From: an uncultured Lewinella sp.
Lineage (GTDB): Bacteria; Bacteroidota; Bacteroidia; Chitinophagales; Saprospiraceae
Direction of reading: 5' to 3'
Assembly: GCA_964616365.1 (NCBI GenBank)
Contig: CAZTTF010000117.1
Span: 156-64,155, forward strand
Length of the DNA: 64,000 bases
Position numbers and translations under genes: made by a program. Every line of letters starts with the position of its first letter. Positions within the stretch are counted from its first letter, which is position 1. Below, one piece after another: positions 38,652-43,901 of the stretch. Under the pieces are notes generated by a model. That model was not told the origin of the DNA and did not search any database. It was given only the letters and a program-made list of their open reading frames with translations.

Positions 38652-39473
38652 CTATACTTCGTTCAATCTGCCGGCACAGTATTTACAGTAAACTGCATCG
38701 TCATCGTGACCTTCCTCAGTACAGTATCTGCAGACCTGGGTGTTGTTTTTCTGGGACTTGCCGAAGTTCATCATCTCGTTAGTGACTATGCCAGTAGGGA
38801 CGGCAATGATGGCGTAGCCAAGAATCATGACGAGGGCAGAGAAGAACTGACCGATGTTTGTTTGGGGAGTAATGTCCCCATAGCCGACCGTAGTTAAAGT
38901 GACAATAGCCCAGTAGACAGCCCTGGGGATAGAACTGAAGCCTTCATTGGTGCCACCTTCGACGAGATACATGAAGGCCCCGATGATGACAACGAGCAGG
39001 CTTACCGCAAATAAGAATACCGTGATCTTATTACGGCTGGCAATCAGGGCTTTTCGGAGCTGATCTCCCTCGTTCAAGAATTTACCCAGCTTAAAAACCC
39101 GGAAGACCCGCAACAGCCTGAGGATACGGATTACAACTAAGTACTGAGTGCCGGCAAAAACAAGGCTGATGTAAGTTGGCATAATGGCCAACAGGTCTAT
39201 GATGCCGTAAAAGCTCAGTGCATACTTCATTGGCCGGATAGTTACCCACAGCCGCAAAAGGTACTCAAAAGTGAAAATGATGGTGAAAAACCATTCCAGG
39301 ACTACGAAGACATCGTGGTAGCGATTGTTCCATTCATCGGAACTCTCCAGACTTACGATCACAACCGAAAAGATGATCAGGACCATCAGGCTGATGTCGA
39401 AGATCTTCCCAAATCGGGTGTCAGCTTCAAAAATAACCTCATGGATACGGTCGCGTACCGGACGATCAGGCAT
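38652..39473 (-). CDS. Voltage-gated K+ channel (6-TM) with C-terminal zinc-ribbon
   Basis: 273 aa. S4 segment RILRLLRVFRVFKLGK, selectivity filter TTVGYGD and C-terminus CRYC-x11-CKYC. Confidence 0.85.
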   Translation of the reverse strand: MPDRPVRDRIHEVIFEADTRFGKIFDISLMVLIIFSVVIVSLESSDEWNNRYHDVFVVLEWFFTIIFTFEYLLRLWVTIRPMKYALSFYGIIDLLAIMPTYISLVFAGTQYLVVIRILRLLRVFRVFKLGKFLNEGDQLRKALIASRNKITVFLFAVSLLVVIIGAFMYLVEGGTNEGFSSIPRAVYWAIVTLTTVGYGDITPQTNIGQFFSALVMILGYAIIAVPTGIVTNEMMNFGKSQKNNTQVCRYCTEEGHDDDAVYCKYCAGRLNEV

Positions 39474-39704: not shown

Positions 39705-40469
39705 ATGCTCTTGAATGCAGTCATCGTCGAGGACGAGTTAAACGGCCTGATCAACCTCAAGCACTTGCTGGCAGAACACTGCAAAGATGTAGAGGTTATT
39801 GGGGATGCAGACGGTGTGGAAAGTGGTTTGAAATTGTTTGCCCAGGATGATATTACACCAGACGTAGCCTTTCTTGATATCAATCTACAGGATGGCAAGG
39901 TGTTTCAGTTACTGAATCGCCTTAATGAGGTCAATTTTGACATCATCTTCGTTACGGCTTACGACCAGTTTGCCATGAAGGCCTGCGAGTATTCCAGTAT
40001 CGGATATATTCTTAAACCCATTGATCCCGATAAATTAGTCGAAGCAGTTTCCCGGGTACGGCCACGGAATTCCGGGCGTACGGAGGAGCGTTTGAAGGTG
40101 ATGCAGAACTTCACTAATCACCCTAACTCGTTCGATAAGATGTCAATTGCGGCACTTGACGGCATCCACTTTGTGAAGATTAGGGACATTGTGCGCTTCG
40201 AAGCTGAAGATAATTATACCCACATCATGCTACGTGGAGGCAATCGGATCACGGCTTCCAAGACGATCAAAGCCTATGAGGACATGCTGTCACCGTTTAA
40301 TTTCTATCGTGTCCATAAACGTCACGTGATCAACATGAATTATATGAAAAAATTCGTCAAGGGAGAGGGGGGATACCTCGTGATGGATGATGACGTGAAG
40401 ATTGAAGTGAGCCGTCGGAGAAGGCCGGCATTCATGACGAGACTACGAGAACTTCAGGAAGTTCTTTAG
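39705..40469 (+). CDS. LytTR-family two-component response regulator
   Basis: 254 aa. Receiver domain (IVEDE, AFLDINL, FVTAY, ILKP) followed by a LytTR DNA-binding domain (FVKIRDIVRFEAEDNYTHI...YRVHKRHVIN). Confidence 0.9.
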   Translation: MLLNAVIVEDELNGLINLKHLLAEHCKDVEVIGDADGVESGLKLFAQDDITPDVAFLDINLQDGKVFQLLNRLNEVNFDIIFVTAYDQFAMKACEYSSIGYILKPIDPDKLVEAVSRVRPRNSGRTEERLKVMQNFTNHPNSFDKMSIAALDGIHFVKIRDIVRFEAEDNYTHIMLRGGNRITASKTIKAYEDMLSPFNFYRVHKRHVINMNYMKKFVKGEGGYLVMDDDVKIEVSRRRRPAFMTRLRELQEVL

Positions 40470-40581
40470 GTTCTTTGAGTTTTTTGAGCTATTTTTGTTT
40501 CGGTATATAATAACGGCTGAAAGGCGTCTCTAGCAAAGAGACCGGATTATTTTCAACGTGTACTTTATTAAGAATTATCCA

Positions 40582-40731
40582 ATGTCTAAAAACGGGAAAA
40601 AAACTATTGCGGAACTTCGGGGTGACCATAAGGATAACATCCTCGATTCCGACAAGATGGACCAGGTAACTGGAGGTAAGCGCAGTGGCACTTGGTTGCG
40701 TCGTGTTTACCACAGTATTGTCCCTCAATAA
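40582..40731 (+). CDS. Unannotated 49-aa peptide with double-glycine (GG) leader
   Basis: Hand-translated: MSKNGKKTIAELRGDHKDNILDSDKMDQVTGG|KRSGTWLRRVYHSIVPQ*. KxTIAxL...xGG resembles Bacteroidota GG-type precursor leaders. Lies between the RR and HK genes on the same strand. Below the length cut-off of the ORF track. Confidence 0.55.
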   Translation: MSKNGKKTIAELRGDHKDNILDSDKMDQVTGGKRSGTWLRRVYHSIVPQ

Positions 40732-40785: not shown

Positions 40786-42735
40786 ATGCAAACATCCGGT
40801 TCAGTCACTATTGAAGTAGGTACTCTTCAACGCAAGATTGCTGAATCCACTTCGGTGGAAGAAATCCTGATCTACCTCGAGCGGTTGATCAGGATTTTTA
40901 TTTACGTTGACCCTAAACAGGCCCATAACCATCTGCACGCAATGCAGGAGCTCCACGAGCGGGAGCGCGGAGGAGGCTTACCATTTTATTACCATCTGCA
41001 TCGGGCGAACCTTGCCAGCCTTGAATACGACGTTGAGCGCGCGCTCGATGAATTGGAGGCTGCCGTGAAAACCGTAGACCAGTACGGAGATATTACCGAA
41101 AAGATAGAGGTGTACCTCGATTACGTAGGGGTGCTGATCAACAACAAGGATTTGAAGAAAGCCCGGGATTATTTTGACCGGGCCGAGCGTCTCTTGGAGT
41201 CTTACCCCGATGAAATTCTGAAGGGTAGAGCTCTGGTTCGGGAGGGCTTCTTGTACGTTCACTCTTTCAGTTACGCGAAGGCAACACCCAAATTTCTGGA
41301 AGCTGATGGTATTTTTACGGCCAAGGAAGAGGCACTGTCGATTAAAGATCATTATTTCTATACCCTCTTGCACTCTGGTTTGGGCACCCTGCAGCTTCGA
41401 CCCGGAAACCTTTCTAAAGCGGCAGCCTCATTTCGTAAGGCCATTGAACGTTGTGAGGAAAAGGGCTTACGTGCACGTTTGGCCTGGCACCAGTTGAAGC
41501 TAGCTGACACTTTAGCGGCTGGCCTGGAATACGAGGAGGCTGTAGCCATTTACAACAGTGTACTCGCTCATTCTGGCTATGGGAGCCAGCAGGCTTTGGC
41601 CGCTACCTGCCATAACCTGGCCCTTTGTAAGTACCAGGCATCAGCGACCGTCGATCACCAAGAGATCAAAGGACTTCTTGATCAGGCAGAGGCACTCTTT
41701 CAGGCCTTGCCCAATCCGGACAAACAGAAATTGACTGCCATCGAAATTCTCCGGGCACAACTTGCTTTTGATGATGGAGACTATGATGGCGCTTCCTCTG
41801 CCCTCTGGCAGAGATTGCGGGAGCTGGAGCCAGACCAGAATCTTGATAATCCGATTGTCGTCGGGGCCACGGCTGAGATCTACCGCATCCTGGCCGAGTG
41901 CCATGCCAAGATGGAGGATTACAAATCGGCCTACACCCTACGCTTAATGTTCGATTACTACAACGAACAGCAGAACGGGCTGGAGGATTCACGATTACAG
42001 GAGGAATTTGCGGCGCGGTTTGCTGCCGCAACTTGGGAAAAAGAACGGGAAAGCTTGCAACTCCGGGCGTCCCAGTTGCAGCTCCGGGCATTGCGGGCGC
42101 AGATGAACCCCCATTTTCTTTTTAATGCCCTTAATAGCATCCAGTCGTTTATTACTACGCACGAGGCAAGCACCGCATCACGCTATCTGGCCAAGTTTGC
42201 CATGTTGATGCGACGCAGCCTCGAATATTCTAACCGGGAGTTCATCAGCCTTGAAGACGAAGTTCAGTTTCTGACGGAATACCTGGACGTCAACTGTAAA
42301 TTAAGATTCAGAGACAAGCTGCAATATTCCATTAAGGTTTCTCCGGAATTGGAGGAAGATGTTATCGGAGTCCCAACAATGATTATCCAACCCTACGTTG
42401 AGAATGCTATTGAGCACGGTTTGCGCTCAAGGCAGGAGGGGCGGATCACCGTCGAATTCGCCGTTGATCCCGAAGATGATGATAGCATTATCGCTACCAT
42501 CCTTGATGATGGAATCGGGCGAGAACAGGTTGCGAGAATGCATGCCGCTGACACCACGAGGAGCCAGCATCAGTCTCGTGGTACCAGCATTACCCAGTCG
42601 CGTCTGGAGTTGTTGTCCGGCACTAAGGAAGAACGCGTTGCCATAGATGACTTGTATCATGCTGATGGTAGAGCGGCAGGAACTTTAGTCCGGGTCAGAA
42701 TTCCCGTGGTTGACGTTGTTCCCAGGCGGGGGTAA
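40786..42735 (+). CDS. Soluble TPR-domain sensor histidine kinase (LytS/YehU-type His_kinase + HATPase)
   Basis: 649 aa. Phospho-His box MNPHFLFNALNSIQ, N box QPYVENAIEHG and G1 box LDDGIG. The ~430-aa N-terminal part is TPR-like repeats. No hydrophobic segment long enough for a TM helix. Confidence 0.85.
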   Translation: MQTSGSVTIEVGTLQRKIAESTSVEEILIYLERLIRIFIYVDPKQAHNHLHAMQELHERERGGGLPFYYHLHRANLASLEYDVERALDELEAAVKTVDQYGDITEKIEVYLDYVGVLINNKDLKKARDYFDRAERLLESYPDEILKGRALVREGFLYVHSFSYAKATPKFLEADGIFTAKEEALSIKDHYFYTLLHSGLGTLQLRPGNLSKAAASFRKAIERCEEKGLRARLAWHQLKLADTLAAGLEYEEAVAIYNSVLAHSGYGSQQALAATCHNLALCKYQASATVDHQEIKGLLDQAEALFQALPNPDKQKLTAIEILRAQLAFDDGDYDGASSALWQRLRELEPDQNLDNPIVVGATAEIYRILAECHAKMEDYKSAYTLRLMFDYYNEQQNGLEDSRLQEEFAARFAAATWEKERESLQLRASQLQLRALRAQMNPHFLFNALNSIQSFITTHEASTASRYLAKFAMLMRRSLEYSNREFISLEDEVQFLTEYLDVNCKLRFRDKLQYSIKVSPELEEDVIGVPTMIIQPYVENAIEHGLRSRQEGRITVEFAVDPEDDDSIIATILDDGIGREQVARMHAADTTRSQHQSRGTSITQSRLELLSGTKEERVAIDDLYHADGRAAGTLVRVRIPVVDVVPRRG

Positions 42736-42818: not shown

Positions 42819-43901
42819 CTATTTCTTAGTCTTCGCTCCGGAGATGATAATGCCGATATTATTGCTCTCTTTCTTCAACTGAGCGAGGGATTTTTTGCCT
42901 CCTTTGGTCGCAACATCATCTCCAAGAATGGAGGTATTTCCTTCGAAAAGACAGGATTCGGTGATGATACTACACTCACCAACCTCATTGGTCATATTGT
43001 AGACTGAGGAACCGTTGGACTTGGCAACGTTGTTTACAAATTGACAGCCTACGAGAAGCGGGACGGCAACGCCGTTCTCTCCATTATTGGTCATGGCTCC
43101 GCCGTATTTTGCTGCATTGTCTTGGAAGTAACAGTCCAGGAACTTTGCGTGTAGCTCCGTACCTTCTCCCATATTGTAGATGGCACCTCCTTTTGAATCA
43201 GCATGGTTATAGAGGAAGCGACAGTTTTCAAAGCTTGTAGCACCGGCACTTACATAAATCGCACCTCCGTTATGTGCCTTGTTCCGGGTGAACTCACAGT
43301 TTATCACCTGATGGGTAGGAAGGATGGAGGGCGTAGCTTCTATGTAGAGTGCTCCTCCGGCATTGCTGGCGCCAAAGCCATGCGTAAAGCCCCTCGCAGT
43401 ACCCTCAGTTATTTTAAAACCGTCAATCAGTGAAGGCTGACCACCACCAATGCGTAGTGTGACGACGGTGTAGGCGTTGTCACTATCTACTTGCTTATCT
43501 CCAATGTTGCCGGAAAGAATTGACCGGGTGTCGTGATGACGATCTGTTGGTCGTTGTTCATTGCCGTGAAAACCTCCGTAGACCTTAGTACCTGCGGGAA
43601 TAACGAAGCTGGCCAGTCGATCGTAGCCCTTGGTAGGGTAGTAGGTCCCCTTCATCACCCAGATTTCATCACCTGGCAAAGCAATAGCCAGTGCATTGGT
43701 GAGTGTGGTTGGAGCAGTCCAGGAATTACCAGCTTTCCCCTCGTCTCCCGCAGGAGAAACGAAGATTGTTGAGGCAGAGGTCGTACCACCAACAAGTGTG
43801 AGGAAAATAAATAACGCTAGATGCTTCAAAGCTGAATCCAATTTGCAAAGTCCCAAAAAATAGGTCGTCCTGTTTGGGAACCAGGAATAAGAAAAGAGCA
43901 A
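42819..43901 (-). CDS. Secreted parallel beta-helix repeat protein (Pmp-like GGAI repeats)
   Basis: 360 aa. Hydrophobic signal region LALFIFLTLVGG. Repeated GGALYIEA / NGGAIYVSA / KGGAIYNMG / YGGAMTNNG / NGSSVYNM. The true start may lie downstream of 43901. Confidence 0.55.
   Translation of the reverse strand: MLFSYSWFPNRTTYFLGLCKLDSALKHLALFIFLTLVGGTTSASTIFVSPAGDEGKAGNSWTAPTTLTNALAIALPGDEIWVMKGTYYPTKGYDRLASFVIPAGTKVYGGFHGNEQRPTDRHHDTRSILSGNIGDKQVDSDNAYTVVTLRIGGGQPSLIDGFKITEGTARGFTHGFGASNAGGALYIEATPSILPTHQVINCEFTRNKAHNGGAIYVSAGATSFENCRFLYNHADSKGGAIYNMGEGTELHAKFLDCYFQDNAAKYGGAMTNNGENGVAVPLLVGCQFVNNVAKSNGSSVYNMTNEVGECSIITESCLFEGNTSILGDDVATKGGKKSLAQLKKESNNIGIIISGAKTKK

Follow-up and report, generated by a model that had tools for sequence, protein, structure and literature searches.

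A soluble TPR-containing histidine kinase of Lewinella and the double-glycine peptide predicted to occupy its groove

A TPR-fused kinase encoded in a conserved three-gene cassette

The 64,000-nucleotide (nt) stretch of DNA analysed here (the window; contig CAZTTF010000117.1, positions 156–64,155, of an uncultured Lewinella sp.) possesses a cassette of three genes encoding a LytTR response regulator, a small peptide with a double-glycine leader and a sensor histidine kinase. The kinase is a soluble enzyme of the LytS/YehU type (PF06580), in which a superhelix of tetratricopeptide repeats (TPR) takes the place of the sensor. The soluble TPR architecture is established, as is the conservation of the three-gene cassette, of the peptide tail and of a pocket in the sensor domain. 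Structure prediction with controls, together with charge covariation, further suggests that the TPR groove of this kinase, which we take to be fully cytoplasmic, probably binds the C-terminal tail of the peptide encoded just upstream. The kinase gene and its parts are as follows.

40786–42735 (+): soluble sensor histidine kinase of 649 amino acids (aa), TPR superhelix plus LytS/YehU-type kinase core (open reading frame, translation, Pfam)
40786–42042 (+): TPR sensor domain, residues 1–419, about 9–10 helix pairs, modelled as a superhelix with a concave groove
42043–42159 (+): connecting helix running through the linker into the H-box helix (helix 379–458 of the full-length model)
42079–42708 (+): kinase core, His_kinase PF06580 (residues 432–512) and HATPase_c (residues 533–641), by Pfam
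42112–42114 (+): codon of the phospho-accepting His443, within the NPHF motif

The catalytic half of the protein is readily assigned. Pfam places PF06580 at residues 432–512 with an E-value of 7.9e-22 (77.8 bits against a curated cut-off of 25.2), followed by HATPase_c at residues 533–641, which scores slightly below its cut-off (E 1.7e-5; 25.6 against 26.4 bits). The full-length model has an alpha/beta fold at residues 486–640. Full-length orthologues with 43–57% identity are encoded in 21 of the 24 genomes of the genus (Lewinella/Neolewinella by database names). Across 20 of these orthologues the NPHF motif with His443 is invariant, as are N540, D574, G576, G578 and G599; their TPR domains are just 28–47% identical. 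A preliminary description of this DNA had singled out positions 40786–42060, which correspond to kinase residues 1–425.

A wider sample was obtained by scanning species-representative genomes with a more distant kinase subfamily, from which 80 loci were kept out of 574 relatives. These distant loci come from Saprospiraceae, Lewinellaceae, Phaeodactylibacter, Flavilitoribacter and Haliscomenobacter. Cultivable bacteria with the cassette include Lewinella/Neolewinella, Flavilitoribacter nigricans and Phaeodactylibacter xiamenensis. The two genes preceding the kinase in the window are the following.

39705–40469 (+): response regulator of 254 aa, receiver plus LytTR domain (Pfam Response_reg 2e-12, LytTR 3.3e-18)
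40582–40731 (+): gene of 49 codons for a precursor peptide, the candidate ligand of the TPR domain
40582–40677 (+): double-glycine leader, peptide residues 1–32
40678–40728 (+): basic core of 17 residues, peptide residues 33–49

The regulator retains the receiver residues E9/D10, D58, T84 and K104. Of the 20 orthologous loci, 19 have it upstream of the peptide gene and the remaining one, L016, ends short; it is also present in 59 of the 80 distant loci. The peptide gene ends 54 nt before the kinase start; it was found in all 20 orthologous loci, each time with the double-glycine leader conserved, and upstream of the kinase in 67 of the 80 distant ones. The order regulator–peptide–kinase holds in all 19 orthologous loci with an upstream flank and in most of the 80 distant ones, and a match to the peptide profile occurs in a second genus of the family, also between regulator and kinase.

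Variable sites of the peptide gene are distributed over the three codon positions as 22/17/47, and the gene is therefore translated and under purifying selection. The precursor has no hydrophobic signal sequence and no Pfam or NCBIfam match above threshold. Matches to the leader-type families TIGR04149 (E 0.034) and PF10439 (E 0.15) are below threshold and come from orthologous peptides, not from the copy in the window. Both the leader and the N-terminal half of the core are variable, while the last seven residues are nearly constant as Cys-Gly-Gly-Ile-(Val/Leu/Met)-Pro-Gln: among 80 unique peptides, 69 have the Cys, 67 and 62 the two Gly, 65 the Ile, 76 one of Val, Leu, Met or Ile, 79 the Pro and 74 the Gln, directly followed by the stop. 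The mature peptides have a median length of 18 aa and are mostly cationic, with a median charge of +4.

Absence of a membrane segment and signal peptide

Membrane segments and signal peptides were called from Kyte–Doolittle hydropathy (19-residue window, usual mark 1.6) with positive controls. No transmembrane (TM) segment was found in the kinase by this measure: the highest 19-residue mean, 1.17, falls on residues 23–41, which form a confident TPR helix in the AlphaFold2 model. Nor does hydropathy reveal the hydrophobic core of a signal peptide at the N-terminus, and a longer N-terminus is impossible because an in-frame stop codon is located at 40729–40731. The longest stretch free of charged or amide residues comprises 9 aa, in line with the statement of the preliminary description that no hydrophobic run reaches about 18 residues. 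Its proposal that the kinase is soluble, with neither TM segment nor signal peptide, is borne out by the low hydropathy maximum and by the controls, all of which were detected.

These controls were six other PF06580 kinases of the same genome, each with a segment scoring 1.6–2.6 located 40–50 aa before the H-box; one of these paralogues (L136:440–2302) combines a hydrophobic N-terminus, TPR, a TM segment and His_kinase. A similar picture is given by 26 of 27 weaker TPR-profile matches (sensor-type proteins of the same class), in which a TM segment of 1.8–3.25 follows the repeats and the output domains are HisKA_2, HisKA_3, SpoIIE or cyclase domains. The six paralogues, L136:440–2302 in particular, and the 26 profile matches agree with the earlier remark that many TPR kinases of Bacteroidota possess a signal peptide and a TM segment. 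In the kinase of the window, residues 424–439 instead lead to the H-box His443, so that the linker runs straight into the His box, as had been described.

The same hydropathy analysis detected no TM segment or signal peptide in the 20 orthologues, no value above 1.43 in 35 database relatives, and no hydrophobic segment in the TPR or linker region at any of the 80 distant loci. By this sequence-based measure, solubility is a property of the whole kinase family.

Structure of the TPR sensor domain

Pfam TPR families span approximately residues 68–380, where TPR_12 (36 bits) and TPR_14 (24.3 bits) both exceed their cut-offs. The domain was further compared with known structures using HMMER profiles against PDB sequences and fold searches. 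A profile built from the 20 orthologous TPR domains matches consensus TPR proteins (E 4e-34), kinesin light chain (6e-9) and RapJ (4e-6). AlphaFold2, supplied with the 20-orthologue alignment, yields a model of 20 helices with a predicted local distance difference test score (pLDDT) of 90.2 and a predicted TM-score of 0.85. With this model Foldseek ranks first the Rap protein of phage phi3T with its bound pheromone (8rsv, E 4e-7), with LGN, RapJ-CSF and NprR close behind. VIA-align gives the following Z-scores.

LGN: 25.8 (315 residues aligned, root-mean-square deviation 3.6 Å, 13–14% identity)
APC subunits: about 24
RapF-PhrF: 23.6
phi3T Rap: 23.5
RapJ: 23.1
NprR: 22.5

Rap and NprR proteins rank below LGN and the APC subunits by Z (22.5–23.6 against 24–26). 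Judging from the model, the domain is of the peptide-wrapping type of TPR superhelix, and the fold searches do not single out the RRNPP family of peptide receptors. The TPR-like nature of residues 1 to about 430, noted earlier by eye, agrees with Pfam, with the E-value of 4e-34 to consensus TPR, with the 20-helix model and with Z-scores of about 20–26; the two stretches given as examples correspond to helix pairs 186–202/209–226 and 232–245/249–261. A concave groove, which the description had proposed to look for as a site of peptide binding, is present in the modelled superhelix, and peptide-bound Rap and NprR are among its best matches.

The full-length model (pLDDT 84) shows no break in the last TPR helix, which extends over residues 379–458 and takes in the linker and His443. 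A single helix spanning the TPR domain and the phosphorylation site suggests that the sensor is mechanically coupled to that site.

Predicted binding of the peptide tail in the groove

A complex of the TPR domain with the full 49-aa precursor was predicted from the alignments of both partners in three runs, with three controls. The scores were 0.87, 0.88 and 0.87, against 0.00, 0.01 and 0.38 for the controls; in calibration, 58 of 80 solved complexes and 2 of 110 mismatched pairs attained this mark, counts that are approximate here because our own alignments were used. At least 72% of the contacts were common to the runs, with a pLDDT of about 49–50 for the peptide partner. In the model, contact with the TPR domain is confined to precursor residues 34–49, which follow the Gly-Gly site, and the leader is left free. 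The contacts lie on helices 4, 6, 8, 10, 12, 15, 17 and 19, that is, on every second helix along the concave face; the most confident ones are made by the last four peptide residues with S78, Y81, G115–N119, R152, F155, L194–T201, R231, W234 and N238.

The predicted contact residues are unusually conserved. Ten of 50 are invariant among the orthologues, compared with 23 of 369 other residues (Fisher p 0.003). The last four peptide residues are predicted to be held by 18 residues of the TPR domain, whose mean conservation in 100 sequences is 0.82, compared with 0.53 elsewhere in the domain; Y81, N119, R152, G198, R231, W234 and N277 are each at least 97% conserved. The conserved pocket for the tail and the near-constant tail itself thus match in the same loci.

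Charge covaries as well: the charge of the peptide core is negatively correlated with that of the groove (Spearman −0.52, n = 86), a value that random sets of 50 non-contact columns attain in 1.9% of cases. In the two loci with acidic peptides, L107 and L118, Lys or Arg occupies six groove positions, 159, 245, 246, 284, 322 and 364, the last of which is Glu or Asp elsewhere. These loci are a natural charge-swap pair for specificity.

Since soluble histidine kinases are frequent and diverse in their N-terminal domains, and the ligand proposed here is a predicted one, the protein could be an ordinary soluble kinase responding to a small metabolite or to the cell state, with its TPR serving only dimerisation or stability. 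We consider this quite improbable, given that the polar and aromatic residues that are conserved are found along the concave groove and not at a dimer interface, and that the peptide gene lies inside the operon in most loci. The preliminary description had guessed at an intracellular peptide ligand. This guess has gained a specific candidate gene, and the predicted groove binding, the conserved tail and pocket and the charge complementarity are all consistent with it.

We hypothesize that the post-cleavage core (17 residues here) would be stretched out on the concave side of the repeats. The hydrophobic-Pro-Gln sequence at its free C-terminus would enter a pocket formed by Tyr81, Asn119, Arg152, Arg231, Trp234 and Asn277, near repeats 2–6, and its charged N-terminal half would face the variable last repeats, which adjoin helix 379–458 with His443. 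By analogy with Rap and NprR receptors, occupancy of the groove may alter the pitch of the superhelix and, in turn, autophosphorylation. The signal would then pass to the adjacent LytTR regulator, which probably controls the promoter of the peptide and kinase genes and other targets; this regulon, like the direction of kinase control, we infer.

Several observations weigh against peptide binding in the groove. The evidence consists of a prediction and of covariation among related, non-independent sequences, so the statistics overstate their independence. An unrelated protein of 426 aa scored 0.38 with the peptide, which is therefore somewhat sticky in the model, and the fold confidence of the peptide partner itself is low. 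A partial Mantel test between peptide-core and contact distances, controlled for the distances of non-contact TPR residues, showed no excess over background in the 20 orthologues (r −0.25, p 0.96); it has little power, because the core has about three variable positions in this set. The charge of the non-contact TPR residues also tracks the peptide charge (rho −0.46), and part of the charge signal is therefore protein-wide or phylogenetic. No peptide gene was detected nearby in 13 of the 80 distant loci, yet the pocket residues are kept there. For homologues from two other genera of the family (L023 and L024), neither a regulator nor a peptide gene was found within the approximately 1.5 kb searched upstream, and their genomes contain no peptide match with the profile used. 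The pheromones of Gram-positive bacteria diverge fast, whereas the tail of this peptide is preserved from genus to genus. Finally, clustering of flanking open reading frames (ORFs) in the 20 and then the 80 loci revealed no importer conserved beside the cassette, though the leader implies export, and re-entry across two membranes has no known route here.

Eleven aligned loci contain orphan kinases, with no regulator or peptide gene in the searched upstream flank of 1.5–3 kb (L068, L071, L072, L079, L080, L083, L094, L106, L117, L122 and L133). All eleven keep the predicted pocket residues. We speculate that orphan TPR kinases may read a peptide made elsewhere.

Export of the peptide and the form in which it may be read

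A double-glycine leader implies cleavage and export by an ABC transporter with a C39 peptidase domain. The only such transporter of the genome, a protein of 731 aa with the catalytic Cys motif, is encoded outside the window and unlinked to the cassette (locus L021, contig C158:30853–34334), beside a gene that is HlyD-like by size and position. No ORF for a double-glycine peptide accompanies it, and a leader hidden Markov model (HMM) run over the genome matched only the peptide ORF of the cassette. Among the 24 genomes of the genus, 23 encode a C39 domain; the sole exception is the one complete genome that has no kinase orthologue.

If the peptide binds the kinase, the ligand could be either the re-imported mature form or the unexported precursor, and we give these two possibilities about equal weight, holding each tentatively. 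In the former case the system would serve quorum sensing: the precursor would be cut after Gly-Gly, exported by the C39 transporter, build up outside, re-enter a cell and bind the cytoplasmic TPR kinase. Such a system would join two Gram-positive designs, the intracellular TPR receptors and the peptide/kinase/LytTR cassette. It is consistent with the conservation of the double-glycine leader in all loci, with the C39 transporter being present in every cassette-bearing genome of the genus checked and missing only where the cassette is missing, and with the model, in which the post-cleavage core alone touches the TPR domain and the leader stays free. The shortness and mostly positive charge of the mature peptides also fit, as short cationic peptides can cross membranes or use SbmA-type importers. 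However, no importer is linked to the cassette in 100 loci, there are two membranes to cross, the C39 transporter itself is unlinked, and a tail nearly identical across genera would not make a species-specific signal.

A reading that we find just as doubtful is that the kinase senses the unexported cytoplasmic precursor by its C-terminal tail, providing a feedback that would match synthesis to export capacity. The secreted peptide would then have its own role outside the cell, e.g. as an antimicrobial or as a modulator of the K+ channel linked to the cassette (described below). No import step is necessary in this case, which fits the lack of a linked importer. The model binds the full 49-aa precursor by residues 34–49 with the leader free, so such sensing is sterically allowed. 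The conservation of the tail across genera would fit a second, conserved target of the peptide, and the channel gene is indeed linked to the cassette in two gene orders. On the other side, we found no precedent in the literature for a kinase sensing its own unexported double-glycine precursor, and the model does not distinguish the precursor from the mature peptide.

A linked Kv-type K+ channel

Another gene associated with the cassette encodes a potassium channel.

38652–39473 (−): Kv-type K+ channel of 273 aa, Ion_trans domain (Pfam 2e-35), TVGYGD filter, C-terminal tail with four Cys

The channel is linked in at least 15 of the 20 orthologous loci and in two arrangements: divergently, upstream of the regulator (L001, L005–L008 and L055), or on the same strand directly after the kinase (L009–L018). 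Its identity across loci, 65–71%, is above that of the kinase TPR domain. Linkage kept through rearrangement suggests a functional tie, and the channel may be under the control of the system, act as a co-sensor or be acted on by the peptide. In the distant set it lies within 3 kb in 27 of 80 loci.

This linkage bears on a further explanation, that the TPR domain is a protein scaffold for some other partner, such as the cytoplasmic tail of the Kv channel, acting as a membrane co-sensor, or another protein. The peptide would then merely be a regulated product and its docking an artefact, due to the readiness of TPR grooves to take up extended peptides. Several facts agree with a scaffold: by fold search the domain is not distinguished from scaffold TPRs such as LGN and the APC subunits (Z 24–26), the channel accompanies most orthologous loci in both arrangements, and homologues with no peptide gene nearby keep the pocket. 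Moreover, LytS-type systems of other bacteria respond to changes in membrane potential. We nevertheless regard a scaffold as unlikely. Control partners unrelated to the system obtained scores of 0.00 and 0.01 in this groove, pocket and tail are both nearly invariant and correspond to each other in the same loci, and the groove charge follows the peptide charge. In the distant loci, too, the channel is found within 3 kb far less often than the peptide gene (27 against 67 of 80). Binding of the peptide tail by the groove is the reading that we retain.

Putative promoter region and other neighbouring genes

The intergenic region between regulator and peptide gene contains a candidate promoter element.

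40490–40497 (+): −7 promoter box TAnnTTTG of the Bacteroidota type, read from the sequence, about 85 nt upstream of the peptide start codon

We take this element to be a promoter from the known Bacteroidota consensus, and a recognisable −7 box occurs at the corresponding place in most of 19 intergenic regions. It would provide the peptide and kinase genes with a putative promoter of their own. Downstream of the box, in the presumed 5′ leader of the peptide gene, there is a small hairpin at 40526–40542 (+) with a T-rich run extending to about 40553. Other loci, e.g. L004 and L005, possess a hairpin with another sequence in the corresponding position. It could act as an attenuator or another regulatory RNA element. 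Three tandem repeats of 9–10 bp at the stop codon of the regulator (40461–40488, +) were considered as a LytTR site; they are not conserved in the other 18 intergenic regions and probably do not represent a conserved one.

Clustering of the flanking ORFs recovered the K+ channel, a convergent PBP1C-type gene (32 loci), DoxX-like (17 loci) and FAD-dependent (10 loci) proteins, and others. The PBP1C-type gene, with Transgly, Transpeptidase and BiPBP_C domains, lies convergently downstream of the kinase in 32 of the 80 distant loci (e.g. L092:5295–7694, −). Its linkage probably reflects lineage synteny and not membership in the module. In the window itself the gene convergent with the kinase (42819–43901, −) encodes a Pmp-like beta-helix protein with Chlam_PMP repeats, which is found at the same position in 6 of the 20 orthologous loci, including the distant L020.

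Comparison with known peptide-signalling systems

The nearest functional parallel is provided by the RRNPP receptors of Firmicutes and their phages (Rap-Phr, NprR-NprX, PlcR-PapR and AimR-AimP). In both cases a cytoplasmic TPR superhelix is encoded beside a small propeptide gene, and an extended peptide is held in the concave groove by conserved Asn, Arg and aromatic contacts, which are predicted ones here. Rap proteins, too, act on two-component phosphorylation. The differences are a diderm Bacteroidota host, in which no Opp-type importer is linked to the cassette, and a sequence likeness that is generic for TPR (E 4e-6 to RapJ against 4e-34 to consensus TPR). Published search criteria for RRNPP systems describe a receptor of 250–500 aa from Firmicutes with a C-terminal TPR domain after an HTH or phosphatase effector and a propeptide exported by Sec/PptAB (PMC10075063). 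The system described here has a cytosolic TPR receptor and a directly adjacent propeptide gene; its receptor is 649 aa long, the TPR domain is N-terminal and fused to a kinase, and the propeptide has a double-glycine leader instead of a Sec/PptAB signal. These criteria exclude the present architecture by length, domain order, leader type and taxon, and similar systems may have been overlooked.

The cassette itself resembles ComC/ComD/ComE, BlpC/H/R and PlnA/B/C, which likewise unite a double-glycine peptide, a histidine kinase and a LytTR regulator, and which rely on a C39-peptidase ABC transporter, with its gene elsewhere, to process and export the peptide. However, their HPK10 kinases sense the peptide outside the cell via a polytopic membrane domain, whereas the kinase described here belongs to PF06580 and has no membrane segment; with such a TPR sensor the peptide would therefore be read in the cytoplasm. 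According to the model, the system would work like an RRNPP receptor and be wired like a ComCDE cassette, while lacking defining features of both.

The usual TPR-containing kinases of Bacteroidota, represented by L136:440–2302, share the PF06580 family, the pairing with LytTR and a TPR-containing N-terminal region. In these proteins a hydrophobic N-terminus and a TM segment about 40 aa before the H-box place the TPR in the periplasm, whereas the family found in the window has neither. The kinase of the window also differs by a longer TPR array and by the continuous helix leading to the H-box. LGN/Pins, the best structural match, wraps its superhelix around an extended peptide held in the inner groove; it is a eukaryotic scaffold, unrelated in sequence apart from the repeat, and the likeness is one of fold and binding mode only. 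An incomplete literature search turned up neither a LytS-type kinase fused to TPR and paired with a peptide nor RRNPP-like systems in Bacteroidota.

To our knowledge, bacterial peptide signalling has been described almost entirely from Gram-positive species, in which two separate designs are used: extracellular peptide is perceived by membrane kinases, imported peptide by cytoplasmic TPR receptors. Here a TPR receptor of the peptide type and a kinase are joined in one soluble protein, whose gene shares a cassette with those of a double-glycine peptide and a LytTR regulator. The hosts are diderm Bacteroidota common in marine, freshwater and wastewater communities.

Should the exported peptide return and be read by the TPR kinase, which we regard as a possibility short of an expectation, this would be peptide quorum sensing in a Gram-negative bacterium. 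The kinase would then represent the first RRNPP-like receptor outside Firmicutes and the first TPR peptide sensor to drive two-component phosphotransfer itself, widespread in Bacteroidota of the Saprospiraceae type and coupled to a voltage-gated K+ channel. If the predicted binding is true in either form, the kinase presents a new receptor architecture, with a recognition motif consisting of a free C-terminal Cys-Gly-Gly-Ile-x-Pro-Gln in a conserved Arg/Asn/Trp pocket. It would also prompt us to ask by what route such peptides get back into a cell enclosed by two membranes, and if they do so at all, and would offer a tractable case for studying how a signal from a TPR groove travels along a single helix to the H-box of a kinase.

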